From the NCBI GenBank assembly GCA_049999805.1, contig JBNGIO010006104.1, positions 62,771 through 109,393 on the forward strand: 46,623 bases of DNA, written 5' to 3'. Each line of letters starts with the position of its first letter. Position 1 is the stretch's first letter. Below are positions 1,678 through 44,973 of this stretch, piece after piece. The notes beneath the pieces are model-generated. The model searched no databases. It worked only from the letters and a program-made list of their open reading frames with translations, and had not been told where the DNA came from. This stretch comes from Folioceros fuciformis (Eukaryota). Made by a program: the position numbers and the translations under genes.

Positions 1678-3593
<1,916 letters not shown>

Positions 3594-3944
3594 TGCCAGG
3601 CCGCCTGATGAGACGTGCACTCAAAGCAAGAAGAAAACACTTCCGCGAGATCTCGATCGCAAGGACAGCAGAGTGCAACAAGGGGGTGGATTCCCGGCGA
3701 TCAGCGCGGTACCAGGGGCAGGAACAGCAAGAAGGGAGTACCAACGTCAAGTGTTGGACAGTCAGCCGATTAATTTCCACTAATTTATTTTAGATTAATG
3801 TTCCGTAGCTACATAGTTTGCCATGGAAACAAACTACGAGAGTGGGTTGCGGGAAGGAGACGAACAGCAGACACCTGGGCTCCTGCGCTCGAGCCCCTTG
3901 GAGCATCACCTGCAGAGGGCCAGGTTTTCCCCTTCTCAGCCACC

Positions 3945-6565: not shown

Positions 6566-7338
6566 CTATTGTCTTTGGCCAGGCTTGTGGACGATGAAAG
6601 AGCAGCATTGGACCTGCCTCTTGTTGTCAAATCCCAGGACGCGGATGAAGCAGCCGGGGTAAGCCTGCTTGCAGTTGTCTATCTCCCTCAACACGGTTGC
6701 GGCATCAGTGCAGCCGAACATGGGCAGCTTCCACATGGTCCAGTACCGACCGTCGTAGTATCCAGGCTGGCCTTGCATCACGCCGATGGAACCGCTCTGC
6801 ATACAATTTCTTCAAACACCTCAGTCTCACGATCGGCGCACGAGAAGACTGTCCAGAACATGCGCATTGCATTTCAGCTCGAAACCTGGCCGGCTTACCG
6901 GGTCGAACTCGAGGCAGGGGATCCAGTTCCGGGCCAACATGTAATCTATCTCCCTCGCAATCTGGTCGGAGGTGAGCGGAGGAAGGTAAGAGAGGGTCTC
7001 GAACTTGGGGTTGCCGATGGGATTCCACACCTGCACAACGTCATGCACGGAAACCAGCCATTCGTGAGCTCAGCACATCCAACCGCACACTTGCTTCCGT
7101 ATTGGATTTCCAAGACGCCGATTCACGGCAGGCACTGCACCTGCATGCAGTTCACGCGGCTGCCGTTGCTGACGGTCCTGGAGCTGAGGCTGGCTGTTCT
7201 GACGGAGAAAGCAGCCCCGGACTTGAGGCCCAGGAAGGCCCGCACGGTGGAGGCCTCGGAGACGGAGCTGCTGGGGGAAGCAGCAAAGAATGCGGCCGGT
7301 GCCGCAACGGCGGATGTGATGGCGACCACGGAGGCCAT
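6566..7338 (-). CDS. rbcS: Rubisco small subunit copy 1 (exons 7338-7141, 7030-6899, 6796-6566)
   Basis: Ala/Ser-rich transit peptide ending [11 protein letters not shown], then [36 protein letters not shown] and [14 protein letters not shown]. Two phase-0 introns. Confidence 0.98.
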
Positions 7339-8110: not shown

Positions 8111-8937
8111 GTCAGTCTCTTCTGGACTTCAGGACGTCTCGAATTCTTGCCCTGATGACAAATTTGGCTGAGCTCGTGGAGTTCAGGCATGGTTCCTGGA
8201 ACCTGTCATTTCTTGCCTAGGGGGAATCTATCCATTGTGAAAGGGTTTTCAGTAGGCAGGGTTTCTAGGACCTGGCAACCTTGTTTTGATATTGTCAGAT
8301 TTAGATTACAAACAGATATGTTGCTTTCACCTCCATTTTGACAAGATCTTAAACTTTTGCTTGTGCACCAGCATTTCAAGAACATCTTGAGGGGAAGCTA
8401 AGCTATCTCGATCTTGAGTGTTAGGCTGCTCTTATTGGATTGCCAAGTATGTACATAGGTCTGGGAGCTCAAGCCACTTAAGTATATGCATATACTAGCT
8501 CAAGGATTGGACCTACCTCCTTACGGGAAGCTAAGCTATCTTGATCTTGAGTGTCAAGCTGCTCTTATTGGATTGCCAAGTATAAACACAGGTCTGGGAG
8601 CTCAAGCCACTTAAGTATATGCATATACTAGCTCAAGGATTGGACCTACCTCCTTAGGGGAAGCTAAGCTATCTTGATCTTGAGTGTCAAGTTGCTCTTA
8701 TTGGATTGCCAAGTATAAACACAGGTACGGGAGCTCAAGCCACTTAAGTATGTGCAAATACTAGCTCAAGGATTGGACCTACCTCCTTAGAAGAACTGTG
8801 GCCTATTGTTGCGTTCATCAATCAATTATTGTGTTCATCATCAACTTACTCATCTAGTCTCCTCCATCTCTATCCATTCTTGTGCAAATTTAGTTTAACC
8901 TCATTTACTAACAAAGAGTCTTTGGCTCCTTTCTTAG
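8111..8937 (+). other. Probable 5'-UTR intron of kinase-like gene K1 (counterparts 12952-13049, 16109-16208, 19941-20439)
   Basis: All four units have a pyrimidine-tract AG ending exactly 21 nt before the ATG. All have an aatctc.ag|gt donor in a conserved upstream block (gc in unit 3). Confidence 0.55.
8392..8789. repeat. 133-bp tandem repeat, 3 copies
   Basis: gggaagctaagctatct...ggacctacctcctta recurs at 8392, 8525 and 8658 with few mismatches. Confidence 0.95.
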
Positions 8938-8958
8938 CCCAACCTTAGCAATCAAGTG

Positions 8959-10668
8959 ATGGACATACAGATCTCTTGTGGTGGGAACCTATATGTGATA
9001 CGGAAATACATTGGCTGTGGAACATGGGCATCAGTATATGAAAGTAAGTGATATGCTTTGTTTCTACAGCAAGTGATGCATACAAAGATAAGTTATCCTC
9101 TCATTTTCGTTTTAAAGAGCAAATGTTTCATTCCCTAATTAGTATGTATTCCACATTACTAATCAACCTCTCGAAATAAATAAGTTGTACTATGAAAATA
9201 ATAATTTTTTTTATCTCTAATGAATATTACTAATTTTTTAACGTTAGATAACCTAACTATTTATAGGCAAATACATGAAATGTGATTACATTTTTTTAAA
9301 ATATTTGTAATAAAAAATATATAATTAATTTAAACTATATGATAAATAAATTGAATTGGCTGCTTACACTTGTTTTGAAGTAACATTCTTTTGGAGTTCA
9401 TGTGAACGTGATTGTAAGATACTTATTTGGTTAATCATGTGTTTTGCAGGTGTAGACTTACAGAATGGCAACACTGTGGCAATCAAATTGCAGGGTAATA
9501 AGGACAAGAATAATCAACTTGATACAGAACGATTAGCATATGAAATCTTGAAAGATGGTATTGGTATTCCAAAGTTCTATGGGTTTGAATGTAGTGTTGA
9601 TTGCGGGATGTTAGGCACACATGATGTGCTCGTAATCGATTACTTGAAGCGTTGGAGATTATCAGGGCTCCCTCTCAAAACAATCTGTCTAATAGCTTTG
9701 CAGATGGTATTACAACAATCGTATCATCATCAAGTATGTTATTCTTGAGAAATTTTCACATTAAATGTAACCTTACGACAAACATTTTTCTTGTAGTAGA
9801 TTGAGATTGTGGCATATGTGCACTCCAAGAATGTGATTCATGGTGATTTGAAACTTGAACATTTCCTTGTGGACCTCAACTTCAACCAGGTTGGTGTAGC
9901 TCTTCACTGAAATTTTGATCTCATGTTATAACAACATAGTTTCTCAACGTCTTTGTTTTCTATCTCAGTTGTACCTAATAGATTACAATGTTTCAACAAT
10001 CAACGATCCTCAAAGAAGGTATGTTAAACATAGTGACTTGTATCGGGGACTTGTGTGTGTTTTTAAAGTGATTATAATCTAGCATTGATGGTAGGTGGGT
10101 TGAGCTGCATAATTTGAACTTAGTGTTGCAAAGCCTCTGTACACCCTCGAGAGTTCCTCCTCAAACTTTGTGTGAAACTTCAAAAGATGAAGAGGAGCAA
10201 CGTGAACTTGAGATTTTGGTGTGTGCTTTCATGTTTTTCTGAAGTAACCTTCCTTCAGGCACTTTCATATTTGTCTTACTAAGTGTAGTGATATTGAAGC
10301 AAGTTTTCTTTCAACTGCATCTCATTTCCTTTCCATGATATGTGTGGCTTTCAGATCTTGAAACATATCATGGATAGATTGTGTGAGCTTGATACTTATA
10401 ACAATGGAATTGAGATTTATAAGATGATGAGACGAGCTTTTCTAAATGTTGTGGAGAGTCAAGGTAATTTATTTTGTATATTATGCCTGGGTATGAGATG
10501 AGCTGGTTATTGTATTTTGACATTTTTGTTGACCTAGTAGTGCTATAAATGAGTAGTTGAAGGGATAAAATTCACTTAATGTTGGGAACTTTGTACTCAA
10601 TGCACTTAGGTTATGATACCATCCTTGACTTGAAAGATCATGAAGATAAGGACAAGTATGAAGATTAA
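8959..10668 (+). CDS. Truncated casein kinase 1-like protein K1, ~257 aa (exons 8959-9043, 9450-9706, 9800-9889, 9969-10018, 10095-10218, 10355-10463, 10610-10668)
   Basis: IGCGTWASVYE, VAIK, LKDGIGIPK, LPLKTICLIALQM|IEIVAYVHSKNVIHGDLK, NQ|LYLIDYN and SQ|GYDTILD parallel the CK1 segments LQGGTGIP, LSLKTVLMLADQM, HSKSFLHRDIK, NQVYIIDFG and REGFQFDYVFD. The exon-5 donor is uncertain. Confidence 0.8.
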
Positions 10669-10954
10669 CAAGCATATCAATGTATATGAATTCATTGAAA
10701 CTGTTCTATTATTTGTTAGATATTAAATATTACAAATAGAACGTCATATAATCTCAGATCTAATGTGAGGAGTGCTTTAAAGACTTCTTATTGAGCATAA
10801 ATAAACATTCGCAATATACTTTAATCTAAATGCTAGGCCATGCTTTGATTCAACAGGTTGGACCATTCAACCAACTCAAAATTCGTAAGGAGTTTTTCAT
10901 ATGGCCCACTCGACCTCTTTGGCTATGGCCCAAATGAGCTCTCCAGTCCTGCAC

Positions 10955-11040
10955 GGGGTTGCTTGAAGGATGTACATATATGAAAGAACAGAGCGGGTTG
11001 CTTGAAGGATGTACATATATGAAAGACCAGAGCGGGTTGC
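10955..11040. repeat. 39-bp tandem duplication in the rbcS copy 2 3' UTR
   Basis: gggttgcttgaaggatgtacatatatgaaaga.cagagc occurs twice. The copy 1 UTR has a single counterpart. Confidence 0.85.
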
Positions 11041-11099
11041 AAAGCGGATCCACATCCAAATCCACACACATATCCAGATCCGAGGCAATGGCGATGTAT

Positions 11100-11877
11100 C
11101 TATTGTCCTTGGCCAGGCTTGTGGACGATGAAAGAGCAGCATTGGACCTGCCTCTTGTTGTCAAATCCCAGGACGCGGATGAAGCAGCCGGGGTAAGCCT
11201 GCTTGCAGTTGTCTATCTCCCTCAACACGGTTGCGGCATCAGTGCAGCCGAACATGGGCAGCTTCCACATGGTCCAGTACCGACCGTCGTAGTATCCAGG
11301 CTGGCCTTGCATCACGCCGATGGAACCGCTCTGCAGACAATTTCCACCAACTCCTCAGTCTCACGATCGGCGCACTAGGAGACTGTCCAAAACCTGCGCC
11401 TTCCTTTGCAGCGCGAAACCTGGATAGCGTACCGGGTCGAACTCGAGGCAGGGGATCCAGTTCCTGGCCAACATGTAATCTATTTCCCTCGCAATCTGGT
11501 CGGAGGTGAGCGGAGGAAGGTAGGAGAGGGTCTCGAACTTGCGGTTGCCGATGGGATTCCACACCTGCGCAACGTCATACATTGAAACCATCCCTCCGTG
11601 AGCTCAGCAATTGGAACCTCACCGTGAGCTTGCGTGTGCGTTGGATTTCTAAGACGACGATAAACAGCAGGCATTGCACCTGCATGCAATTCACACGGCT
11701 GCCGTTGCTGACGGTCCTGGAGCTGAGGCTGGCTGTGCTGACGGAGGAAGCAGCCCCGGACTTGAGGCCGACGACGGCCCGCATGGTGGAGGCCTCCGAG
11801 ACGGTGCGGCTGGGGGAACCAGCAACGAATGCGGCCGGCGCCGCAACAGCGGATGTGATGGCGACCACGGAAGCCAT
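11100..11877 (-). CDS. rbcS: Rubisco small subunit copy 2 (exons 11877-11680, 11564-11433, 11330-11100)
   Basis: Same structure as copy 1. The mature protein differs at two residues (GNRKF vs GNPKF; GQGQ vs GQRQ). Confidence 0.98.
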
Positions 11878-13070
11878 GGCTCTGCTAGCAGACGAAGAGA
11901 TCGAGAGGGAAGATCACTGAAGGTGAACTGGATGGTGTGAACGTGTCTCGCATTGAGGCTCGCTTAAGTAGTCTGGTCTGGGATTCCATACCCGGAATTC
12001 AACCTGCTCCACAGACGCATATTCCGGATGGCACTCCGGGAGTGGCGGAGTTCACGGAGTTCAGCCTGCCACTGCGCGTCACCATCCCTCGGAGCCGGAG
12101 ATGATACATGTATTTTTGCCATGGCAACGAGCTCAGATGAGCTCATGCAAGCGGTATCTTCCGTGATACCTAGGCCATGCTCCAGGCTGAGGATGTGTTG
12201 AGCTCCATTACAATGCATACAAGAGGAAGAAGACAAAATTTTCTTGAGGGAGGAAGACGGGATGGCCCATCGATATTCCCAAAGGATTGGGCTAAATTGG
12301 AGCAAACAAGCTTCGTAGTAGAGGGCCCTTACAGGGCGGCAAGCCACTCTCACCAAGAAACCAACTGGCATCAACTTGCTTCCGTGAAGATGCCCGGAGG
12401 ACTGAATCACAGGAACCGCACCAAGTCGTTGCGCGGCGATCCCAATGCATGGCCCGACAATGCGAGTCCAGAATCCTAAGCTCCTGTTGTTGCTGAACCG
12501 GGAGAAACAACTGATGCTTGCAAACAAATGCAGCTCCTACGAAATTTCTGGATCAGCGCTCCACCACTCACTCATCCAGGCCCTCGCTTCACCATTAGGG
12601 CAGTGGAAAGTAGCTCAATCATATACCCTTCCAAATTACTTTAAAACATTCTGACCTTATGCTTTACTAGAGGAAACATCTTTCAGAACGTTAGAGTTCC
12701 CTTTGATAGGAATATGAAACAGCTTTCAAAGAGCATGCCAATCACCAATCGCCCATGGATGTTCCAGAATCTCATGGATGTTCCAGAATCTCAATTGAAA
12801 GGAGACAGAGCATACCAAAATCTCAATTGAAAAGAGACAGGAGTGTGAGTATAAGTGCTTGGGGACTCATATAGAGTACAGGTTGAACCAGGACACTCTT
12901 GGCTCTTCTCATCCATCTGCCCATCTGCAGCATATGTTTTTGAATCTCCAGGTGAACAATATCATTGAATTGAACAAAATTGGTATAGAGTCATGTGCAG
13001 ATTTAGGTTTACCTTATTACTAATCGAGAGTCATGGGTTCTATCCTTAGGTCAACCAAAACAATTAAGCT

Positions 13071-14650
13071 ATGGTGATCGAGATCTTGTGCGGTAATAGG
13101 CAATACCTGATAGGGAACCGTATGGGTTCTGGATCATTCACATTAGTACATGAAGGTAATGAATATCATCCCCTTGTTTATGTGGGAAGAAAGGTTGAGA
13201 TGTGTGTCTAAAGCTTTGTACATGTTTATGAAGTCACAAGTGAGAACCTCAATAAACCAAAACCGATTGCATTTGCTATCATGATTAGTTGACTCAACTA
13301 ATCCTGTTCATTTTGCATGAACATTCACTCGAAGTTGATGCTAACACTGTTCTCCATTGCTTATGTCCTTCACCATTTCTTGCAGGTTACGACATAAAAG
13401 ATGGGAATGAGGTGGTAATCAAAATACAACATCATTCAAATGAGTACAGCCCATTCGATAGGGAACGAGAGACATATGAAATCTTACAAGACGGTATTGG
13501 TATTCCGAAGCTCCTTGGGTGGCAATCTAATGTTCAGTGCGACGACTGGGGCATGTTTGATGTGCTCATACTTGAGTACCTAAAGCGGTGGAGACCAATT
13601 GGGCTCTCTCTCAAAACAATTTGTCTGGTAGCCTTGCAAATGGTATGATCATTGTATCTTCATTCTCAGTATCATCCTTAGGATTTCACCTTAAATGTAA
13701 CCTAGCAACAAGTATTTTGCTTGTTACAGATCGACATTGTGCAGCACATGCACTCCAAAAATGTGAGTCACCGTAGTCTGAGAGTTCAAAACTTTCTAAT
13801 GAATCCTGACTTCAACCAGGTTGGTGCAGCTCCTTTCTGCAATCTTGGTTTCAATTCATAGCAACATATTTTCACAATGTTTCTCTATGTTTCATTCCAG
13901 CTATACTTAGTAGATTTTAACTATTCAACGATCAAAGATGTTCAAGGAAGGTATGTTAAACCAATTGAAGTATGAGGAACTTGACTTGAATGCGTCCTTC
14001 TCAAATTTATGATGAACTAAGTTTATGGCAGGTATACTGATCTCGAAGATTTAAGCTTAGTGCTACAAAGCTTATGTAAACCTTTAAACAACCCACCACT
14101 AAGCTCAAGCGAAAGTTCAGACAAGTCAACACAAAGCCCAAGTGAAACTTTAGAACATGAGGATGAGACTCCAAATGACCAAGAGGTTCGTAGTATGTGT
14201 TTTAGAGTTGTACTAGACTAAACTAACTGTCTTTTAAGCACTTGCTTAATATCTTTCTTGCTAGCCACAATCATATTGGAACAAACCTTCTTTCACATGC
14301 TTCTCATTTCCTTTGTATGATGTGTGTGGTTTCAGATCTTACGAAATATGGCCAAAGAATTGCGTGAACTTACTCCTTCTCTGAAGTTGGCTAAGATTTA
14401 CAGCTTGTTTAGAGAGATATTTGCACACGTTGTGGAAACGAAAGGTAATTTATTTTAAGCATTAACCCTTGGATTTGTGATGAACTAGTTGTTTTGTTTT
14501 GACATTTTAGTTAGTCTACTACTAATGCAAATGAATAGCTCAATTGATGAAGTTTGCTTAATGTTGATCATTTTATGCTTAATGCAAGTAGGTTATAATA
14601 ACGTTCTCAACTTGAAAAGTCATGAAGATTATGAAGATTATGAAGATTAA
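13071..14650 (+). CDS. Truncated CK1-like pseudokinase K2, ~267 aa (exons 13071-13155, 13386-13642, 13730-13819, 13901-13950, 14032-14185, 14336-14444, 14592-14650)
   Basis: MGSGSFTLVHEG, VVIK, LQDGIGIPK, LSLKTICLVALQM, HRSLRVQN (no catalytic Asp), LYLVDFN and RYTDLEDLSLVL. The frame is open through 7 GT-AG exons. Confidence 0.85.
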
Positions 14651-14799
14651 CTTAAAATATTGCAAGTTATGAGTGATTTACTGAAAAGAGAAACAGAAGT
14701 TTGTATATGAATATGAAAAATGTATTAAATGTTTATTTTGTAATTTAATCATAATTGAACCTTGACGCTCCACAGCTCGGCAGTAGTATGATTAGCACA

Positions 14800-15325
14800 A
14801 GCACCTCAGTCTCACAATCGGCGCACCAACAGTGGATGGGCCAGAACATTCGTGCTCATTCCATTCGTGCTCGAATCTGGCTAGCTTACCGGGTCGAATT
14901 CGAGGCAGGGGATCCAGCTCCTGACCAACATGGAAGCTATCGCTCTCGCAATCTCGTCGGGGGTGAGCCGAGGAAGGTAAGAGAGAGTCTGGAACTTGGG
15001 GTTGCCGATGGGATTCCACGGCAGGTCATGCATGGAAACCAGCCATCCCTGAGTTCAGCACGTCGAACCGCACTCGATCTTGCGCATTGGATTTCCAAGA
15101 CGCCGATCCACGGCAGGGACTGTACCTGCATGCAGCTCACACGGCTGCCGCTGCTCACGGTCCTGGAGCCAACGAGACTGGCTGTGCTGACGGAGGAAGC
15201 AGCCCCGAACTTGAGGCCCATGAGGGCCGGCACGATGGCGGCCTCTGAGACGGTGCAGAGGGGGAAGCGGCAACGAATGCGGGCGCTGCCGCAACGGAGG
15301 ACGTGATGGCGACTACGGGAGCCCT
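14800..15325 (-). pseudogene. rbcS: rbcS copy 3 pseudogene
   Basis: The start ATG has become AGG (15325-15323) and exon 1 has indels. The intron-1 acceptor is deleted. Exon 2 has drifted ([43 protein letters not shown]). Exon 3 is absent and the proximal promoter is deleted. Confidence 0.92.
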
Positions 15326-16229
15326 GGCGCAGTAAGCAGATGAAGAGATCGAGAGGAAAGATTACTGAAAGTATCGTCAATGATGCCTGTGCCGTGCTGG
15401 AGGCTGAGGATGTGTTACGCTCGATTAGTATGCATGCGAGAGGAAGATGGGAGAGGCCACCGATGTTTCCAAGGATTGGGCTACTTTGGAGGAAATAAGC
15501 TTCGTAGTAGAGGGCCCTTACAAGGCAGCAAGCCAGGATCACCATGGAAACAAATGGCTCCAACTTGGTCCCGTGAAGATGCAGGGAGGGCTGGATCGCA
15601 GAACGCCACACCAAGTCGTTGCACGGCGATGCCAATGCATGGCCAGACTATGTGAGTCCTGAATCCCTGTTGGCTGTTGTTGCTGAATCGGGAGGAACAG
15701 CTGATGCTTGCGAAGAAATGCAGCTTCTGAGGAATTTCACGTTCAGAGCTCCACCGCTCAACCGGGAACTTCAGAGCTACACCATTTAGGGCTGTGGAAG
15801 GTACCTCATCATGTATCATTTGAAATAGTTTAAAATATTACGATAATAATGGTTCGATAGAAAAGACATCTTTTGAAATATTCTAACGGTACACTTGTAT
15901 AGGAATATGAAACATATCACTAGGTCAAGAGGGAATGCCAATTGTTGTTAGCCGATGTTAGGAGGGAATGCCAATTGTTAGTTGATGTTTATAAATCTCA
16001 ATGAAGAATGGTTGGAAGTTGTTGGGGACTCCCATAATGTATGCTTAGTGTGGCTGGAAAGACTCTCTTCCGACCCATATGCTGCAGCGTCTACTTTTCA
16101 ATCTCTAGGCGAACAATATCATTGAATGTGAACAATGTGTGTATCTACTCCTATGCAGATTTAGTTTTACCTCTGTGAGTAATTGAGAGTATTGGGTTCC
16201 TTCCTTAGCTCAACCAAAACAATTAAGCT

Positions 16230-18496
16230 ATGGCTGTAGAGATATGGTGTGATAAGAAGGCATATTTGATGGGGAACCCCTTTGGTTCTGGAATATGGGC
16301 AACATTCCATGAAGGTAAGTTACATGCTCAGTTTCTACATCAAGCAATGCATAAAAAGTTGAGTCATCCATTCTACTTGTAATATGCACATGGTTTATTC
16401 CTTCGTTACTATGTATTACACATTGCTAAACAACAACCCTAAACTCTACGCTATGGAATCCATACTTCTGCACAGTTTACGAATATAGCTCCTTTGTTTA
16501 TGTGGAAAGAAAGTATGGGATATGAGTCTACAAGCTATTGATTAGTTAGTTCAGTGAGCTACAAGCTATTGACTAGTTGAACGAGCGAGTTGAGCTGCAA
16601 GTTGTTCATTAGTTGCATGAGCTGCAAGTTGTTCATTAGTTGCATGAGTTGCAAGTTGTTCATTAGTTGCATGAGCTGCAAGCTNNNNNNNNNNTTGATT
16701 AGTTGCATGAGCTACAAGCTGTTGATTAGTTGCATGAGCTACAAGCTGTTGATTAGATGCATGAGCTACAAGATGTTGATTAGGCGAATGAGTTGAACTG
16801 CAAGTTGTTGATTAGGAGAATGAATTGAACTGCAGGCTGTTGATTAGGCAAATGAGTTAAGTTGCAAGCTACAAGCTATTGATTAGTTGAGTGAGTGAGT
16901 TGCAAGCTGTTGATTAGTTGGGTGGTTAAGTTGCAAGCTATTGATTAGGTGAATGAGTTCAACTACAAGTTGATGAGTTGCATGAGCTGCAAGCTGTTGA
17001 TTAGTTGCATGAGCTACAAGCTGTGGATGAGTTGCATGAGCTGCAAGCTATTGATTAATTGAATGAGCTGAAACTTTCCTGCAGGTTTTGACTTAGAAGA
17101 AGCTGACACGGTGACAATCAAATTACATTCTACCTTAACCAATTATAACTTATTTGATATAGAAGTAGAGGCCTACCAAACCCTACAACAAGGTATCGGT
17201 ATTCCAAAGCTCCATGGGTTTGACTCTAATGTTGATTGTGGAGAGCATGGCACATTTGATATGCTCATAATTGACGACCTAAAGCGTTGGAAAGCATATA
17301 ATCTCTCTCTCAAAACAATTTGTCTGATAGCCTTGCAAATGGTATGATCATTATACCTTCATTATGAACATCATTCTAAGCATTGCACATAAAATATAAC
17401 CTTACAACAAGTGTGTCTCTTATTGCAGATTGACATTGTGCAATACATGCACTCCAAAAATGTGTATCACGGATTTTTGGTTCTTCAAAATTTTCTGGTG
17501 GATCCCAGCTTTAGCCAGGTTGGTGTAGCTCTTTTTCCTGCTTTTTCTTTTTTTTAAATATATATATATATAACAACATGAAATCTTTACGACGTTTCTA
17601 ATAATGTTTTTGTTTCAGTTGTATATAATACAATTTATTTTTTCAACAATGGAAGACACTGAAGCAAGGTATGTTAAACCAAGTGAAGGTAAGGCCTTGA
17701 CTTAAATATGTCCTCATAACATGATTTTATGGCAGGTATATTGATCTCGAAGATTTAAACTTAGCACTACAAAGGTTGTGTTTATCCTCAAAGCATGAAC
17801 AAAGCCCAAGCGGAACTTCAGAACATGAAGATGAGAAACAAGATGAACAACATGCTTCAGTAGATGAAGATGAGAAACAAGATGAACAGCAAGCGTCAGA
17901 AGATGAAGATGAGAAACAACATGAACAGCAAGCTTCACAAGACGAAGATGAGAAACAACATGAACAGCAAGCTTCACAAGACGAAGATGAGAAACAACAT
18001 GAACAACAAGCTTTGGAGCATGAAGATGAGAAACAACATGAGCAGCAGGTTTGTAGTATGGATTTTAGTGTAAGCTAATTCTCTTTCAAGCACTTTGGCA
18101 TCCTTCTTATTACCCACAATCAAATCTTCCTTCCCTTTCACCTACTTCTCACTTCCTTCCTATGATATCTTTTTGGTTTTCAGATCTTACTAGATATTGA
18201 TAACAAATTGCGTGAACTTTATACTCGTGTGGAGTCAGAAGATATTTATACGATGTTGAGGCAGACTTTTTCAGATGTTATAGAGAGCCAAGGTAATTTA
18301 TTCTAAGCAATTTTTCTTCTTGGGTATTTGATGAATTAGTTGTTTTAATTTGGCATTGTAGTTAACTTGGTAGTGTTGTAAATGAATTGTTAAATTGATA
18401 AAATTTATTTAACATTAACTATTTCATTATTACTCAATCCATGTAGGTTATGATAATGTCCTAGACTTGAAAGATCATGAAGATCGTGATAATTAA
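16230..18496 (+). CDS. Truncated CK1-like pseudokinase K3 with acidic repeat, ~317 aa (exons 16230-16314, 17085-17341, 17429-17518, 17619-17668, 17736-18048, 18184-18292, 18447-18496)
   Basis: FGSGIWATFHEG, VTIK, LQQGIGIPK, LSLKTICLIALQM, HGFLVLQN, LYIIQFI (in place of DFG) and RYIDLEDLNL. The frame is open. An N gap lies inside intron 1. Confidence 0.83.
16523..17069. repeat. 27-bp minisatellite (with longer variants) in K3 intron 1, spanning an assembly gap
   Basis: Consensus tgagctacaagctgttgattagttgca is repeated. An N run starts at 16685. Confidence 0.95.
17818..18048 (+). repeat. Coding 39-bp repeat, about 6 copies (13-aa SQDEDEKQHEQQA)
   Basis: In-frame repeats inside K3 exon 5. Confidence 0.95.
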
Positions 18497-18723
18497 CTTC
18501 AAATATTGCAACTCAAAAAAATGAAAAACATATGGATACATACAAGTTATTTAAAATGCTCTTATTAATTTAAATATTTTATTATACATAAAATATTAAA
18601 TTCTATGTATTAAGGAATAGAGTGTGATGTACTCTTATATTATTGCCTAACATTTTACATGAGTCGAAGCCCAATACTTTATATAGGTTGGTCGAGCAAG
18701 CTCAATTAGCACCTTAATCCTTC

Positions 18724-18840
18724 AGTGGGTTTAGGGTTTAGGGTTTAGCCTACTTTAGTCTACATGTTTGGCCTTCTTAAGTAGTGGGTTTAGGGTTTAG
18801 GGTTTAGCCTACTTTAGTCTACATGTTCGGCCTTGTGAAG
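18724..18840. repeat. 59-bp duplication, each copy carrying three plant telomere repeats (GGGTTTA)
   Basis: agtgggtttagggtttagggtttagcctactttagtctacatgtt occurs at 18724 and 18783. Confidence 0.92.
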
Positions 18841-19374
18841 TAAGGTATGCTAGTGCACATTGGGTTCATGAGACTTTGATATTCAGACACAGAAGAAACC
18901 CATTTATGGAAAAAACTCAAGGAAAAACCATCTCACAAAGAGACTTAGGTGGCTTCTGCCTAAACTTTCTTTTAGGAAAACCCATTGACCATGGCATCCA
19001 TGTTGCATATGGTGTGCAACAAAGGGCAAAGAAGACTCCTTAATTTCTCTTTTTACAGCAGCCACATCGAGTTCGTTGATACACCAGACGAACCAACTCT
19101 CAGCAACTACACCAAATGAACTTGTCCATCCAAAAACACATAATCCTATCATAGACATCTAGTTGCACCTCCTTCCTCACACACCCACCATAGTTTCGCA
19201 ATATGTATGCTTAAAGTGTCTTTCTTTAGTCATTTACGATTAAGGATTGTGAAAGGGAATTAGAAGTATATGCTCATATGCTCAAGTGTAGGTAGACCCA
19301 ATGGAGCTCAGCTCTTGCTTTTGAAGGTCTCATGTTGAGGGAAGCCAAGGAGCAAGCCTTAATGCGCTCAATGT

Positions 19375-19940
19375 GACCAAGAAAGCAAATCAACTTACCT
19401 TGATGAAGTTGCCATGAGGGTTGAATCATAGAAACCACATCAAAATTGGTGTGCAGTGATGCCAATGTGTGGCCAAACTATGGTAGTCCTGAATCCCAAG
19501 TGGTTGCTATCCCTAAATAGGGTGAGAGAAACAAGTTGATCAACTTGCTCCTCTCGGCTAGTTTGCTTACATCATGCATGATGTAGTATGCAAACAAATA
19601 TAGCTCTTGTGCAATTTTTGGATAGGTTCATACACGCACTCACTTCACCATTTAGGGTAGTGGAAAGTAGCTCATTATACATATCATTTGAAAATAGTTT
19701 AATATCTTATAATTATTATAATTTACTCAATGAGAAATATTTAAGAATAATATAGCGATACACTTGGATAAGAATATGAATAGGTAATGAGAGAATTGTA
19801 ATCACCAATCAACGTTCTTGAATTTAAATTGAAAAGAGATGGGAACATATCTTATAGGGGACTCCCATAGTGTATGCCTAGTGTGACACGAAAGAGATAC
19901 TTCTGATCACTTGCCGCAACATCTTCCTTTCAATCTCCAG
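19375..19940. other. Fourth, decayed copy of the rbcS-kinase intergenic spacer, with no rbcS attached
   Basis: Aligns by eye to 12352-12951 and 15541-16108 (gtcctgaatccc, caaacaaat, cttcaccatttagg, ggggactcccata). Confidence 0.8.
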
Positions 19941-20460
19941 GTCAATCTCTCTTGGACTTTAGAAATCGTTAGGGCTGCATTCATAGTAGTTGAGCTTGTG
20001 AACTGAATTCAAGCAGCCGTAGGCATTTCTCCATTCCTTTGCCTTAGAGAAATCCATGTAGTATGGCAGGGTTATTAGTATGCAAGGCTTAGCTAAGCCC
20101 TAAAAGGCAGAGCCAAGTTCTGAAAGCTTTTCATAACCTGGCCATCTCGTTTTGATATCAGTAGGGATTAAGATTGCATACAGATGAATCTATTGTTCAC
20201 TTCCATTCTAACCATTTTGTTCTCCTCCATTTTGTTCTCATCTCAAGGTTTCACTCCTACACCAGCATTTCAAGAATATCTCCAAGTAAGCACATGTTAC
20301 CTCTGTTTTGAGTGTCAAGCTGCTCTAATCCCATTGCCTAAGTTTATGCATAGGGTTTAGGAGGTGCTCCAATATCCGCATCCATTCAAATTTCATCCAT
20401 ATCCATTACAGAGAAGACAAGATTGGGTTCCTTTCTCAGCTCAACTAAACCAATTTAGCT

Positions 20461-22053
20461 ATGGCTATTGAGATCTCCTGCAATGGGAAGCAATACTTGA
20501 TAAGGAGCCCTATTGGTGCTGGATCTATAGCAGATGTATATGAAGGTAAGTGACATGCTGAATTTCTACACCAAGCTATGCATATAGACAAGTTCAGCTC
20601 AGTAGCTCATTCCTTATGTATTACACTTCGCTGAAGAACAACAAATACATTGAACAATGGAAACAATACTTGTGCAAGTCCCTCTGTTTGTGTGTCTACA
20701 AAGTAGATTGATGCACCTCTATGTACAGGTCTTAAGTAATGCTCATAGTCTTCTTGAATGAACACTCATTGTAATCTGATGCTAATGTGATTATCCATTA
20801 CTAACTTCTTTTACTATTTTTCCGCAGGTCTAGACGTAGAAACTGGCAATCAGGTGGCAATCAAAGCGCATCCTCGACGAAGGGGGGATAGAGATCTGTT
20901 TCACACCGAACAATTAGCATATCAAATCCTAAAAGATGGTACTGGTATTCCAAAGCTTTATGGGTTTCAAACTAGCTTTATGTTTGCAGACTTAGGCAAA
21001 CATGACATCCTTGTAATCGAATACTTAAAGCAATGGAGATCATCAGCGCTCTCTCTCAAAACAATATGTCTATTAGCATTACAAATGGTATGATTATCAT
21101 ATCATTATGGCTAATATTATTCTCCGTTTTCCATATCAAATGTAACATGACACAAGTATGTCTCATCTCGCAGATCGACATCGTGCAATACATGCACTCC
21201 AAAAAAGTGACTCACTGTGATCTGAAACTTGACCATTTTCTCATGGATATCAACTTCAGCCAGGTTGGTGTGAAGTCTTCCTGAAATCCTCATCTCCTAC
21301 CATAACAACATATTTTCTCTCTTTTTATGTCTTTTTTGTTTTATTTTTTCAGCTACGTGTAATAGATTTCAATTGTTCAAGAATCGACAATCTCTCACAA
21401 AAGTATGTTAAACCTCTTGATGTATATCCGACTTTTGTCTTTCCCAAATCCCTCATAAACTAATACTTGTAGCTAGCAGGTGGATTGATTTTCGTTATTT
21501 GAACTTATCCCTACAAAAATTATGTGAACACTTCGAACATCCACCAGAAAGCTTATTTGTACCTTCAAGACATGAAGAGAATAAACAGCATGACCTGAAG
21601 GTTTGCAGTCTGTGTTTTAGTGTCCTGCTTACTAATGTTCATTTAAGCAATTTCATAATCTGAGTAATCTTCCTTCAAATTCATCTGATTCATTTGATTC
21701 CCTATCTATGATCTCTGTGGTGTTCAGATCTTACAAAATGTTGTTCTTGATTTGCGAGAATATAGTTTAGAAGAGTCAGATGAACTTTACTCGATATTGA
21801 GAGAGATTTTTTTGAAAGTTATCAAGAGTGAAGGTACTTTGTTTCAAGCATGATTCTTGGGTGTGTGATGCACTAAGTTTTGATGTGTGTTTGCATTAGC
21901 TTAGTAGTTAACATAGTGCCTTAGTTTGTGTTACACATGAGTAGTTGAATTGATGAAATTCACTCAATGTTGTATCTGTTGTTGATCATCTTCTACTTGA
22001 TACATGTAGGTTATGACACCATCCTTGACTTGAAAGATGATGAAACAAATTGA
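20461..22053 (+). CDS. Truncated CK1-like protein K4, ~251 aa (exons 20461-20545, 20828-21087, 21174-21263, 21353-21402, 21480-21600, 21728-21833, 22010-22053)
   Basis: IGAGSIADVYEG, VAIK, LKDGTGIPK, LSLKTICLLALQM, HCDLKLDH, LRVIDFN and SE|GYDTILDLKD. The frame is open and the introns are canonical. Confidence 0.85.
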
Positions 22054-22699
22054 TGGGAAAGAGATTATGGAGGCAAGGCCCCCATCCATTACTTCAATCT
22101 TGATCATATAGTCAAAAGAGGAAGAAGCTTGAAAAAAATTAGGGATGTCTTGAAACCCAGAATGTCTTTTGCATGCTCAATGCTACTTAGCTTAGCTTAG
22201 CTCAGAAAAAGTGGTTATCTGTCACCAAGCTCGATTTGCTGTCAATGGAAAGCAGCCAGCCACATAATTCACTCCATGCTGCTCATGCCAACTCTTACTC
22301 ACACAGCTGGTTTCAAGCAGTCAAGTAAAAGTAATTGTAATTGTGGTAAAAGAAAAGGCTGAATAGGCAGGTATTATGGTCGGAAATTGGCTTAGACCCG
22401 ATGGGGTTACAACAGGTTAGTCGGGCACCGAATGCCACCGACAGCCGAGGGCGTACAGGATACAAAGAGACGGACGGCGTACAGTATGTACCGTAGTACG
22501 TATCGCACAGACCACAGTCGTCAAACGATTCCGATGCCGCATCTTCCTCGACAGTGCACGCAAGAGAGGCAATGCCGGGACGAGTTGGACTGTCTCTGCT
22601 TAGCCTTCCTCCCCCTTGTCGACCCCCCTCCTCCATGCGTCCTCCCTGGCCTGGCCTGCACTGCCCGCCCGCCCGCGGCCTGCGCCTTCTCGCTCTCTT

Positions 22700-25600
22700 A
22701 TGGCGGGATGTGCACACATTTGGCACGCTCTGCTCTTGCTGCTCCTCGTCTCCGCACTTGGTAGCTGCCCGGCCTTGGCTCAATCCTCCTCCGCCCCAGG
22801 TACGCCTTAACGCCATATTCCCTGCAATTCCGCTGTGCAGGCCAAGCTCCCAGACTCGCACCCTGAAGCGCTCTCTGCCCATGCACAGCTGCGGCCGATA
22901 ACATCAGCATTGCCTGCGGCAGCTCGTCTTCCTTCACCGATGACGGCGTGCTCTGGGTCCCCGACATTCCCTACGTCTTTGCCGGGAGAGCCGCTAATGT
23001 GCCCAACACCGACCCCATTCATTCCTGGAGCAGGTTGAGATACTTCCCTGATGGCCGCAAGAATTGTTTCCAGGTCCCCCTGCAAAATGGAATTCGGTAC
23101 CTCGTTCGGGCCACCTTTCTGTACGGCCGCTATGACACGCAAAACTCTCCTCCGCGCTTCGGAGTGGCCGTCGACGCCACGTATGTACGCGATATATGGC
23201 TGCAGCAGATTACAATGCCCCTCTCAGATCTGCAGGCGATGGAGCTTATTTTCACTGCTCCCCAGGCCAATGTGAGCTTCTGCTTGGTTTCCCTTCCCGG
23301 CGGGGGCTCACCTGTCATATCCAGTCTGCAATTCAGGCCGTTGCTGCCTGCCGATTACTTTGCCTTTAATGCGACTTCCACCATGTATGATCTAGTGTAT
23401 CGCCTTTCCTGCGGCGGGTACGTCTGCTTCACCGACCAACGGGATTCTAGACGTATCATCATGGTGTGGTGTGGGTTTATTAGGACTTGTTAGGTCGATG
23501 GATCACAGGTGCATATGTGTGACACGGGGTTCTGTACGATGCTCCTTGGTGGCGTTTGGTGGTGCTCTATCGCAATCGTCAGCTCGTGTATGCATGGCCT
23601 AATGGTGGGATGCTTGGTTGTAGGGATGTCTTCAACACGTCCGGTCCCACCTGGTCACCTAGCAACTCTACGAGCAGTATCGGTAACTCCACCGACTGCG
23701 GTGTATGTGTACAGGAGCGGATTGGCGTGGAATTCATTTCCATATTGTGTTACTCGAGCCGGATTGATTTCGTTATGTCAATCAGCAATAGCTCTGCCCA
23801 TCATGTTATCCTCTATTTGTCGGAGCTATACTGGTCGTCACCTCCAGCCGAGAACATAGAAATTTTTGTGAATGGCGAGCTGCAATTTCTAGGCGCCGAT
23901 TTCCCCAGCTCAAACTCCAGTGGGCCTTCAGTTACTCCTACACGAGAGCTGTGGTTGCATCAGGATGTGACAGCTGCTGGTGGTTTGCTTAACCTCTCTT
24001 TTGTGTACCAAACTGGTTCTCCGGTTACTGGGTCTCCACTGGATGCTTTCGAGGTCTACAGTACCCTGCCCATGGCTGTGCCTACTCGTCAAGATGATGG
24101 TAAAGCTGTCGTTTTCAAGAGCTAGTTCCCATTATTGCAATGGCACCGTCCTTCGTGCAATTGTGTGCTTCGTCGCTAAATAGAAGTTGGAGGTCGTGGT
24201 CATATCTGTACAAGCAGGGACATGTGGTTTTGGTCTCACTGGCCGGACGTTACGAACCTGAATCGTGATAGCGTCTTCTGACTGCGTAGAGGCATGTGTA
24301 TTTGCAGTCCTAGGCCTGCTGCAGTTCAGGAGCAGCTTCCGCATCTACCCTGGGTTAGGAGATCCATGCCTTCCGACAGGCAGTGAGTGGGATGGGGTGA
24401 CATGCTCCCTGGATACGGGTCAACCAACGGTTACCACTTTGTAAGTGTGCCCTGTCCTGTGTGCTCATTGGAATTCAAGTGGACTACTAGAGTGTCTTGG
24501 GAACTATGTTATGCAGAGGGAGTGTTGTAGGTACCGTAGCATGTCTTAGCATGAATTTCCTGACCTGATCTGTTGTGAGTTGTGCAGGAATTTGGCTGAC
24601 TCAGAACTCATAGGCCCTCTACCTAGTGATCTAAACTTACTTATCTACCTCGAAAATCTGTAAGTTATCAAGCATCTGCGCAGTGTATGTGTTAATACTA
24701 GTGGCCGGGGCTTACGTGATGTCCTGGCAGTTGGCTTGGCAATAACTTTCTCACAGGTCCTATACCAGACGCATCAAATCTGTCAAGATTGAGTTCCTTG
24801 TACGTTTCTTCTACTCGTGCTGTTGTACTTACTGTCTAGCCGTTGAGTAGAGAGCAGAGTGTTGGTGAACAGATTCCGTGGGCCATTTGCAGAGACCTTC
24901 ATGGGAATGAGTTGAGTGGCACGATCCCAGACTATATTTTCAGCCTCCCACGTCTGAGATCTGTGTAAGTTCGCTAAAGTGTGTGCATCTTCGAGTTGGA
25001 TACGGTGGGTGTACCGGGTGCCTCCTTTGTGGCGTGTGCGCTTCAGCTGTGCAGTTGTCATTTTGGATGTTGTGCAGTTCATTGCAGCAAAACAATTTGA
25101 GTGGTAGCATTTCCTCCTCCCGTTTGCGATCCCTGAATGATTTAAAGGTTCAGTACAAGTAAGTGAGATGATACTTGCAGCCTTGTGTGCCTCGCACTTT
25201 GCACATGTAGTCATTACTCACTGAATCGTCGTTTGTTGAATTTCGATGGCTTGCCAGTTTCACAGGGAACCCCTACCTTTTCCTCTCTAGTATTCCTTCA
25301 GGGAGCAAACACATGAAGATTCTCGTAGGAGCTTTAGTTGGGGGTATCGGGTTTTGTTTGCTAGTGGTAGTGGGAGGATTCGTGGTGTGCTGCATAAGTA
25401 AGCACAGTGTCGAGGTTTCTGAAAAGGGGACTTCCTTGTTGTCTCGGTCACCCCCAAACTGTAAGTATACATGTGTTCCCTGATTGTTTGGCATTGTGAA
25501 GAGTGATGTAAGAGCCTATAAGATGATTCTGTTCGTTTTGACTTCTGCAGACGTCATGAAACCTCTTAGTTTGCCAGTGGAGTTCGATTGGTTGCCGGGT

Positions 25601-27119
25601 GAGGTGCAGCAATTCTCCCTGAAGGAGGTAGAGTCGGCAACCAACAATTTTAAAAGCATGATTGGTGAAGGTGGGTTTGGTTCTGTATTCTATGGAACAC
25701 TGCCTGATGGGCAGGCTGTGGCTGTCAAAGTTCGGTCGGCATCTTCTCACCAAGGAGCACGTGAATTCTATTCAGAGGTAACATTGTCCCCGTTTGTGCA
25801 CTGCCAGCACTATAATTTGGCTTGCCAGGCAAGACACTCACCCGAACTTCGCTTTTCTGGTTGGTTGGAACTCAGATCAATCTTTTGAAGAAAGTGCGGC
25901 ATGAGAACTTAGTTCCACTCATCGGCTCTTGCTCGGATGGAGATTGCCAGATACTTGTTTATCCGTACATGTCCAACGGTTCTCTGCAGGACCGGCTGTA
26001 TGGTACGCACTTTTGAGTTTTTTGCAACGTCTGGATGGTATTTTGCCTTCTTATGGGTGTCAACTTGACCTTGACACTGAAATGTATGCAGGTGAAGCTG
26101 CTCGCCGGAAATCTCTTGACTGGCAGACTCGTCTCACCATTGCCTTGGGAGCTGCACGAGGTTGTGTGATATGTCCGCAGCATTTTCAATGTTATTTTTT
26201 GTGGTGTACATTTGTCATATTGATCATTGATTATGTATGCACTATCGTTGGCTGCTGTGGGGCATGCAGGCCTTTACTTCCTGCACACTGGAGGCGATCG
26301 TTGTATCATACACAGAGATGTTAAGTCTAGTAACATACTCCTTGACCACAGAATGGTTGCCAAAGTGGCAGATTTTGGGCTTTCAAAGTATGCTCCCCAG
26401 GAAGGGGACAGTCTGGTATCTACGGAAGTTAGAGGCACGGCAGGTTATCTTGACCCAGAGTAAGCTCTCGATATGAAAGAAATTCAGTGGTCGTTACTTG
26501 GTGCAGGAGAGCCGGGGCTAATCTTGATGGGTTGTTTCGAGTGCAGGTACTACGCTACACAACAGCTGACCGATAAGAGTGATGTGTTTAGCTTTGGTAT
26601 TGTTCTTTTAGAAATTATATGTGGTCGTGAGCCTCTGAATATTCACCGGCCACGGCCAGAATGGAGTTTGGTGGAGTGGGTACGTACCGAAGTGGTTTGC
26701 ATTTTGGTTGACGCATGACCACCTGACAGTGTGGGTGTTTGGAAGTAAGAGACTGAGGTTTGGTTGTGGACCCACAGGCAAGGCCATTCATTCGAGAGCA
26801 GAGACTGCAGGAAATAGTGGATCCTGCAATCAGCGGAAGCTACACTGCTGAGGCCATGTGGCGAGTGCTGGAGATTGCAATATGCAGTGTGGAGCCTCAT
26901 GCAATCCATCGCCCTACTATGGGTGACATAATTCGGGAGCTGGACGATGCCTTGATCATAGAGAACAACGCGTCACAATATATGGCATCGGCGCAAAGCC
27001 TGGACTCGCTGTGTTTGTCAGTAACCGACATCAGGATTCCTTCCAACTTTCCACCAGCGTTTCCGTTGGATCCATCCGCTGTGTTCTCGGATACATTAGA
27101 GTCCCCGGACCCGAGATAA
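22700..27119 (+). CDS. SYMRK: Symbiosis receptor-like kinase (SYMRK/DMI2/NORK-type malectin-like LRR receptor kinase), multi-exon
   Basis: Signal peptide, malectin-like domain ([27 protein letters not shown]), GDPC motif, LRR exons and a transmembrane segment. The kinase has SYMRK-typical segments [59 protein letters not shown] and [12 protein letters not shown]. Confidence 0.9.
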
Positions 27120-27852
27120 GATGACCGATGCCAGCCTGGCCGAGCCTAGGCCAGGCCAGCCCTGCTCAGCAGTTGCTGCTGCTGCATCGCATGAGCTGCT
27201 GTGCCGCTGGTTGGACCTTGTACAAGGTGAGATTGTGGTTTTTTTAAAACTTGATTTTGAGGGTGCTGTTGGAGAACGAGCCCTGTGTGTGTGGTTGATG
27301 GTTACGTCGGCTGTTTTTGTTGGTACGTACTGTGCAGAAGGTAAAGAAAGGTTGGTTTGTCGGGATATGAGGCTAGGCCAGCCTCATCCTTCCAGGTCGG
27401 CTCTGGACCGAGTGTAGAGGATGGCAAATGATAAAAATGGAATCCAAGCAAAAAAATCAAGCATGTAGAGAATATGCACTTAGGTCACGTAGATACTACA
27501 TGGTGAGAGGGAGCCGGGCATGAAGGAAGGAGTAGGTGAACGCTGGTGTCCTGTGCAGGACCCGCTTGATTGTGTGATATTATTCCAATCCCAAAAAAGT
27601 TCATTCGGCACATATCCCTCCCTCGCCGTCCCGGAGGTACAGTACGGCTGTATACGTAGGTAATTTGCGGGGCGTCGTTTTCGACGACGAGTGTTGTTGC
27701 TGGGGAGTGCTTGTGTCAGTTCGGTTCAGGCCCCGGGAGTGGTGGAAGACAACAACATCTTTAGGGACCATTGGCGTGTGAAGGGATGTGGATATTTAAT
27801 GACGATTGTAAAGCATTTCGATTCAGGGGTAGGTACCTATTGGTCGGTGAGA

Positions 27853-30047: not shown

Positions 30048-30471
30048 CTCCTCCTCCTCGCTTGTTTCCTTCCTTGCTGGCTTTACGACCTTGACGTGCG
30101 GAGCGGAAGCGGAGCTTGAGAGGCGGGTCTGAAGGAGTGTTCTTTATATCTCTACTTCGGGACAGGACGGGGCAAGGCGGGGGAGGCGGGACCACTGCGG
30201 GGCAGACAGTCAAGCAGATATTTGTTTCACGACAGTGTGCCGACTCTCGGGACGTCTCGCCTCGGCTCCTCTTCTCGTCTCGTCGCCTGAGGAGGAGGAA
30301 GGAGGCCGTGTGTTTGGTGAATGAGAGACACTGTGAATATGTATAGGCTACAGGCTCAAGCTCATGGGACGGTGTGTTGGAGGGGGAAGGATGAGGAGGG
30401 TGTTGCTGTTGTGTGAGAGTGCAGCGTCGACTGCCGAGCAGCCGGAGCCGGCCACCAACCAATAAGATAGG

Positions 30472-44788: not shown

Positions 44789-44973
44789 ATGCAAAAGTGT
44801 TCTTTGAAGCGGTTAGTAGAATGCTATGCAAAAGTGTTCTTTGAAGAGGTTAGTAGAATGCTATACAAAAGTGTTCTTTGAAGATGTTAGTAGAATGCTA
44901 TGCAAAAGCGTTCTTTGAAGAGGTTAGTAGAAAGCTTTGCAAAAGCATTCTTTGAAGAGGTTAGTAGAATGCT
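44789..44973. repeat. 37-bp tandem repeat, 5 copies
   Basis: atgcaaaagtgttctttgaagaggttagtagaatgct starts at 44789, 44826, 44863, 44900 and 44937. Confidence 0.95.

Follow-up and report, generated by a model that had tools for sequence, protein, structure and literature searches.

Four tandem CK1-derived genes of Folioceros fuciformis: a probable family of reduced, non-catalytic kinase folds

A 46,623-nucleotide (nt) stretch of Folioceros fuciformis DNA (NCBI GenBank assembly GCA_049999805.1, contig JBNGIO010006104.1, positions 62,771 to 109,393 of the forward strand; hereafter the window, numbered from its first letter) carries within 8959-22053 four plus-strand genes, which we designate K1-K4 and whose products are reduced relatives of casein kinase 1 (CK1). 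The best explanation of our observations, which we regard as reasonably probable, is that K1-K4 form an expressed and selected family of non-catalytic CK1-fold proteins that likely act by binding. The anatomy of the genes, their splicing, their CK1 descent, the loss of motifs and the selection on their open reading frames are established by the data presented here. From these data we infer that the K proteins have lost kinase activity and retained the kinase fold, in which case non-catalytic binding, be it as a scaffold, as a decoy or sponge, or in the regulation of CK1 partners, would be their most likely mode of action.

The four gene models, built from coordinates, are as follows (lengths in amino acids, aa; motifs are those at the HRD, DIKPDN and DFG positions; UTR, untranslated region):

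K1, 8959-10668, plus strand: seven coding exons (8959-9043, 9450-9706, 9800-9889, 9969-10018, 10095-10218, 10355-10463, 10610-10668), 257 aa, motifs HGD / DLKLEH / DYN.
K2, 12952-14650, plus strand: 5'-UTR intron 12952-13049, ATG at 13071, seven coding exons (13071-13155, 13386-13642, 13730-13819, 13901-13950, 14032-14185, 14336-14444, 14592-14650), 267 aa, motifs HRS / SLRVQN / DFN.
K3, 16230-18496, plus strand: seven coding exons (16230-16314, 17085-17341, 17429-17518, 17619-17668, 17736-18048, 18184-18292, 18447-18496), 317 aa, motifs HGF / FLVLQN / QFI.
K4, 20286-22053, plus strand: 5'-UTR intron 20286-20411, ATG at 20461, seven coding exons (20461-20545, 20828-21087, 21174-21263, 21353-21402, 21480-21600, 21728-21833, 22010-22053), 251 aa, motifs HCD / DLKLDH / DFN.

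All 24 introns have GT..AG borders, with the 48 splice dinucleotides intact, and exons 2-7 are entered in the same phases (1,0,0,2,0,1) in every gene. Stops, frameshifts and broken splice sites, the signs of a decaying pseudogene, are absent from all four, and an in-frame stop lies at most 8 codons upstream of each ATG. Exons 1, 3 and 4 are of equal length throughout (85, 90 and 50 nt). The lengths in K1-K4 are 257/257/257/260 for exon 2, 124/154/313/121 for exon 5 and 109/109/109/106 for exon 6, and every change in exon length between the copies is a multiple of 3. All six introns vary in length across the copies, mostly by non-multiples of three. The seven-exon plan, the shared intron phases, the stop-free frames and the restriction to in-frame indels, all reported in a preliminary description of this DNA, thus hold for each of the four models, and the K2 junction quoted there, DFNYSTIKDVQGR followed by YTDLEDL, is reproduced exactly. 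A tblastn search of the whole window with the four proteins revealed no K loci beyond K1-K4. Intron 1 of K3 measures 770 nt and includes a degenerate minisatellite (27-32-bp unit, about 17 copies, 16591-17070) that spans a 10-N assembly gap (16685-16694); because of this gap within the minisatellite the true length of the intron is uncertain.

Transcript data consisted of contigs from one public run (X1, which we guess to be RNA) mapped over 8900-22100. The K2 contigs are joined at 13155>13386, 13642>13730, 13819>13901, 13950>14032 and 14185>14336, all GT..AG, and a 1163-nt contig of K4 at 20545>20828, 21087>21174, 21263>21353, 21402>21480 and 21600>21728, in both cases as predicted. Among the rows listed, the joints cover introns 1-5 of K2 and introns 1-5 of K4 as well as UTR joints; the contig pieces listed contain no differing letters, and every skipped stretch is bounded by GT..AG. 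The 5'-UTR introns of K2 and K4 come from these contigs and bring the transcripts to at least 8 exons. For K1, a 512-nt contig has one piece, 9450-9705, corresponding to exon 2, with 138 and 118 additional letters on its flanks; for K3 there is the weak indication of a contig on exon 5 that starts with an 8-letter loose end equal to the end of exon 4. Contig cover is absent at 10223-10663 of K1 and 16397-17719 of K3, which is uninformative either way, and since contig depth cannot rank the genes we make no claim about expression level. We take the intron-free contigs that match the predicted borders as derived from cDNA. In the K2 and K4 contigs exon 4 is spliced straight to exon 5 and therefore no hidden exon restores the activation loop there; the extra exon that, according to the preliminary description, would have spoken against its reading was not found in these contigs. 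K1-K4 are real, transcribed and correctly spliced genes, with splicing documented for introns 1-5 of K2 and K4.

The relationship of the K proteins to CK1 is clear at the level of profiles. When the K alignment was compared with 21 full CK1 domains by hhalign, 246 columns could be aligned with 30% identity, a probability of 100 and an expect value (E) of 6.1e-50, leaving 7, 30 and 13 residues of the template unpaired. In the PDB, a profile built from the exon-2 translations of all four genes matched CK1 delta with E 4.3e-9 and a rice CK1-like chain with E 5.4e-9; the best 38 of the 42 rows are CK1-family proteins (two of them named just 'serine/threonine protein kinase'), and the bottom four, with E of at least 0.84, are unrelated. 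When the spliced proteins were compared by blastp with the library hits described below, CK1 domains were found at 27-39% identity and E of 1e-18 to 2e-25. Exon-2 motifs of the K proteins (SLKT, QM and HSK) likewise fit canonical CK1, [ST]LKT being present in 95 of the 114 hits. Pfam was applied only to single-exon translations, which are short: none of the four exon-2 translations had a match at E <=1, and exon 3 alone scored 20.0 and 16.2 bits against Pkinase (PF00069), for which the gathering cut-off is 31.7. A Kdo match to the 30-aa exon 3 (E 0.014-0.028) lies under its cut-off and is weaker than the Pkinase match. On these comparisons the K proteins are derivatives of a canonical casein kinase 1 domain, as the preliminary description had supposed.

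Closer relatives did not emerge. An exhaustive profile search of 1.84 billion representatives returned 114 proteins at E <=1e-3. Four of them, namely the top scorers P0001 and P0002 (the two with E <1e-10), P0003 and P0008, were rejected as spurious, being repetitive proteins of >2000 aa matched over short pieces. All others are at the level of CK1 and reach at most 52 bits; no K-like protein closer than ordinary CK1 was among them. A word-indexed search for longer proteins with exon 2 of K1 yielded 60 candidates, none at E <=1e-3; a protein-pattern scan of metagenomes produced 224 pattern matches, none of which was confirmed, and a metagenome scan with a degenerate 25-nt DNA motif common to K1-K4 produced no match. 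The libraries do not contain the window's own K proteins, and the absence therefore applies to other sequenced organisms and not to close relatives of this plant. The label 'lineage-specific' given in the preliminary description accordingly expresses absence from the libraries searched. Our literature searches turned up no short plant pseudokinase derived from CK1, although supplementary gene lists may include such genes. In a maximum-likelihood tree with 21 CK1 domains, the K proteins form a clade with support 100/100 and the topology (K1,(K4,(K2,K3))). Its stem amounts to 2.03 + 1.36 changes per column, and it lies outside two CK1 groups that we take, by their likeness to typical sequences, to be plant-like and animal-like. 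Terminal branches are 0.28-0.57 in K as against 0-0.16 in those two groups. The tree failed to place K inside CK1, given the long K stem.

Alignments with CK1 (MAFFT and hhalign) reveal what the K proteins have lost, and the absences proposed in the preliminary description are borne out in all four copies. Seven residues are missing at GPSLEDL (the alphaD stretch). Between the DFG position and the SRRDD..ESL helix 30-33 residues are missing, which is the entire activation and P+1 segment. The LPWQG loop is missing as well, together with about 13 residues of the next helix region (alphaH). The gap of the activation segment adjoins the exon 4/5 junction, and exon loss is for this reason a plausible origin of the deletion. 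The N-lobe has insertions of 3 and 6 residues relative to CK1, and an acidic linker of variable length connects the alphaF-like helix to the helix that follows. In K3 this linker is extended, downstream of the alphaF-like helix, by a repeat within exon 5:

17816-18047, plus strand: acidic in-frame tandem repeat of a 39-nt (13-aa) unit, 5.9 copies, 90% matches (TRF).

The beta-3 Lys and alphaC Glu, said earlier to be kept, are indeed present in all four copies. The catalytic motifs are degenerate and vary from copy to copy: HRD has become HGD, HRS, HGF and HCD in K1-K4, DIKPDN has become DLKLEH, SLRVQN, FLVLQN and DLKLDH, and DFG has become DYN, DFN, QFI and DFN. None of the four combines the HRD Asp, the Lys and Asn of the catalytic loop and the DFG Asp that together make up the catalytic set; K2 is without the catalytic Asp and Lys, and K3 without Asp, Lys and the DFG Asp. 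For comparison, HRD is present in 46 of the 47 library CK1 hits that have a recognisable catalytic loop. By the sequence definition, under which a pseudokinase is a kinase-fold homolog devoid of at least one canonical catalytic residue, the K family consists of pseudokinases. Across the K copies, 54 columns that are conserved in CK1 at >=80% vary. Of the 74 columns invariant in K, 25 agree with the CK1 consensus, 11 depart from it and 38 fall where CK1 varies or is gapped, which leaves 49 without the CK1 consensus residue.

The K genes evolve fast and nonetheless under selection, in agreement with the preliminary description on both counts. Neighbouring copies share only 45-51% aa identity, which accords with the long stem and branches in the tree. 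At a pairwise exon p-distance of 0.26-0.32, the Nei-Gojobori ratio of nonsynonymous to synonymous substitution rates (dN/dS) is 0.50-0.62 in all six pairs (dS 0.62-0.81), and of 1000 codon bootstraps per pair 0-0.3% reach a dN/dS of 1. We also simulated neutral evolution by random substitution (3000 trials per gene, per-lineage p of 0.10, 0.15 and 0.20): a stop-free frame survived per gene in 0.8-2.3% of trials at p 0.10, in 0.07-0.5% at 0.15 and in 0-0.17% at 0.20. Together with the in-frame indels, these values speak for selection, and the combination of a dN/dS near 1 and missing transcripts was not what we found, spliced X1 contigs being available (if the run is RNA, as we guess). Constraint is unevenly distributed along the protein. 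The ratio of nonsynonymous to synonymous differences per site (pN/pS), taken in 30-codon windows, amounts to 0.98-1.03 where the glycine loop and strands beta-1 to beta-3 lie (K1 residues 11-50; windows 11-40 and 21-50), to 0.8-0.9 over the acidic linker and the next helix, and is lowest, 0.32-0.37, over the alphaE/catalytic-loop scaffold (K1 residues 91-140); no window exceeds 1.03. Because the motifs vary from copy to copy and pN/pS is about 1 in the glycine loop, catalysis appears to be no longer selected. What is selected is the open frame, the compact helical core and the approximately 49 family-specific invariant residues.

The array in which the K genes are embedded provides a point of reference. 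Self-comparison identified a repeating unit composed of one Rubisco small-subunit (RbcS) gene on the minus strand and one K gene on the plus strand:

RbcS0, 6566-7338, minus strand: intact 3-exon Rubisco small-subunit gene, 186 aa, paired with K1 in the duplicated unit.
RbcS1, 11100-11877, minus strand: intact 3-exon gene, 186 aa, between K1 and K2, with a Pfam RuBisCO_small match and spliced X1 contigs.
RbcS2, 14890-15323, minus strand: decayed copy between K2 and K3, recognised by sequence similarity.

The RbcS genes of the window encode transit peptides (Pfam RuBisCO_small). In RbcS2 the ATG has become AGG, one nucleotide of exon 1 is deleted and nothing corresponds to exon 3. This copy provides an internal control: without selection, members of this array decay, while K1-K4 are all intact. 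RbcS0 and RbcS1 differ by dS 0.082 and dN 0.026, their introns are 78-82% identical, and the GC content at third codon positions is 0.80-0.81 in the RbcS copies versus 0.32-0.41 in the K genes. This pattern suggests gene conversion or strong codon constraint, and RbcS is therefore ill suited to dating the duplications of K. No RbcS copy is present between K3 and K4 in the spacer 18500-20400, whose likeness to the intergenic DNA of the remaining units is confined to short stretches (about 19628-19962); this unit seems to have had its RbcS part deleted. The same spacer contains, at 18724-18842, a 59-bp unit present twice and holding three tandem copies of a GGGTTTA/TTTAGGG heptamer, which resembles a plant telomere repeat in an interstitial position. 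Another tandem repeat (133 bp, 3.0 copies, 95% matches, 8390-8790) precedes the start codon of K1 by about 170 bp.

In our interpretation, K1-K4 arose by tandem duplication of the RbcS (minus) and K (plus) unit. The K protein would keep the N-lobe, the alphaE/catalytic-loop scaffold, an alphaF-like helix and a C-terminal alphaI-like helix. It is without GPSLEDL in alphaD, without the activation/P+1 segment and the LPWQG loop and without part of alphaH, and a variable, probably disordered acidic linker stands in for the alphaF-alphaG loop. The CK1-shaped core, perhaps together with the acidic Ser-rich linker, might engage the partners or regulators of true CK1, or bait them, and the copies would diversify fast, as binding proteins of such kind often do. 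It is tempting to go further and to speculate that K represents a third, undescribed type of the plant CK1 group, a 'mini-CK1' fold with some 200 structured residues that is maintained by selection and rapidly diversifies as a non-catalytic partner or sponge of CK1 signalling; this bolder version we offer only tentatively, as possible but on the whole doubtful. Such a protein might, for example, compete for CK1-binding proteins, or its acidic Ser-rich linker might serve as a pseudo-substrate.

Comparison with known systems helps to define what is unusual about the family. Relative to canonical CK1 (plant CKL, that is type I casein kinase I (CKI), and animal CK1 delta/epsilon/alpha), K is homologous over its whole length and shares VAIK, the alphaC Glu, GIP, SLKT..QM..HSK, NFL, the alphaF core and the C-terminal helix, but it has only 251-317 aa, no C-terminal tail, degenerate catalytic motifs and the acidic linker. 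VRK3, which acts as a scaffold, resembles K in being a CK1-group fold that has lost catalytic residues; it is, however, an animal protein with a full-size domain including the activation segment, and not a close relative of K. RIO and Bud32/PRPK are similar to K in combining an N-lobe with a trimmed C-lobe devoid of the activation/substrate-binding segment in about 250 aa, yet they retain catalytic residues, which K does not, and no specific homology to them was found, all significant K matches being to CK1. Pseudokinases are common, but to our knowledge those described from plants are nearly all RLK/Pelle-derived and have a full-size domain. ZED1/ZRK receptor-like cytoplasmic kinases and tandem kinase proteins belong there too, with their RLK/Pelle-derived, full-length domains, whereas K is CK1-derived. 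The MLK/MUT9-like or type II CKI are active kinases of considerable length whose activation segment, which K lacks, is complete. Like K, they belong to the CK1 group and are restricted to the green lineage, according to a survey of plant CKI (PMC8140429). For 18 species, this survey reports two types of CKI, canonical and MLK, both under negative selection, which in the case of CKI is strong and differs from the fast evolution of K (PMC8140429). It also gives 13-15 exons for cotton type I CKI genes, in contrast to the seven coding exons of K (PMC8140429). ZED1/ZRK and tandem kinase proteins are reported to be non-catalytic folds, often in fast-evolving tandem families, as K is (PMC6634424, PMC8761531).

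Several points weigh against K1-K4 being selected, non-catalytic binding proteins. The role as binder, decoy or regulator is proposed purely by analogy to other pseudokinases, and we infer the fold on the assumption that the trimmed C-lobe folds stably. Transcript support comes from the single run X1, whose RNA nature is guessed. A dN/dS of 0.5-0.6 corresponds to weak constraint, and exon identity (0.68-0.74) is not above the gap-optimised identity of introns 2-6 (0.72-0.77), so that much of each K protein evolves close to neutrally. As a test of selection, though, the intron-exon comparison is uninformative, the gap-optimised intron identity being inflated (a shuffled-intron control gives 0.63-0.66). 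The same two observations, moderate dN/dS and exons no better conserved than introns in such alignments, are what one would expect if K1-K4 were transcribed but functionless duplicates heading to decay, their open frames being leftovers, and the lack of orthologs in the library searches and metagenome scans fits this as well. We nevertheless find it very improbable: all four frames are intact at exon p-distances at which the simulated neutral survival is at most 2.3% per gene, the 48 splice dinucleotides have survived, all exon indels are in frame, 74 columns are invariant, and in the same array RbcS2 did decay.

Another difficulty is posed by K1 and K4, in which the beta-3 Lys and alphaC Glu are accompanied by the HxD Asp, the Lys of the catalytic loop and the DFG Asp, with only the Asn changed to His, so that by their residues some residual or atypical activity is conceivable. 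Some or all copies might then be atypical active enzymes (protein kinases or ATPases) that dispense with a conventional activation loop, K1 and K4 being the likeliest candidates; kinase folds of the RIO/Bud32 type hydrolyse ATP although they have no activation loop, some kinases lacking Mg-binding residues work, and the beta-3 Lys and alphaC Glu are common to all copies. This seems unlikely to us, however: the full residue set occurs in no copy, K2 and K3 have neither the catalytic Asp nor the catalytic Lys, K3 is in addition without the DFG Asp, the peptide-binding P+1 region is gone throughout, the glycine-loop region has a pN/pS of about 1, and variation of the motifs between copies would not be expected for conserved chemistry. 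Lost catalysis with a kept fold core would also suit an immune decoy set, in which CK1 look-alikes bait effectors aimed at host CK1 and diversify in an arms race. We know of no effector targeting plant CK1, which counts against the idea, and pN/pS with its maximum of 1.03 in 30-codon windows gives no evident positive selection. The tandem arrangement of neighbours only 45-51% identical in aa sequence and the malectin-like receptor kinase gene directly downstream are in its favour, but no NLR or other guard gene was seen within the window, and the neighbouring RbcS, phosphoglucomutase-like and CoA (coenzyme A)-ligase-like genes do not make an immune cluster. Although plant pseudokinase decoys are documented, in ZED1 (PMC6634424) and tandem kinase proteins (PMC8761531), we attach little probability to this alternative.

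If the bolder 'mini-CK1' version is true, a eukaryotic protein kinase domain can be reduced by secondary loss to a minimal architecture like that of RIO/Bud32 and still be useful. The K family would be a natural experiment on the extent to which a kinase domain can be trimmed with the remainder still selected, its four neighbouring copies displaying different stages of decay of the catalytic motifs, and it might give access to the regulation of CK1 in a plant lineage that is not a model. Should the K proteins not fold or lack a phenotype, they would be merely a fast-evolving young gene family.

The remainder of the window contains genes of other kinds, from which, together with the RbcS genes, we take the window to be nuclear DNA of a green plant. 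Directly downstream of K4, at 22867-27200 on the plus strand, lies the gene of the receptor-like kinase, its malectin-like domain matched in Pfam at E 1.3e-29; the kinase domain has no similarity to K at tblastn E <=1e-2. It is followed on the minus strand by a long frame, rich in GC, for phosphoglucomutase/phosphomannomutase domains II and III (27853-29232) and by a long frame of 466 aa without a Pfam match (29383-30783). Upstream of the array, at 2231-3620 on the minus strand, frames with CoA-ligase and CoA-binding domains point to a succinyl-CoA ligase or ATP-citrate-lyase-like gene. Toward the end of the window, at 43152-44412 and 44894-46623, there is a tandem-repeat array that is self-similar at many offsets and has a second 10-N gap (44259-44268), and after it comes a Ty1-copia fragment with retroviral SH3-like and RVT_2 domains that runs past the window end.

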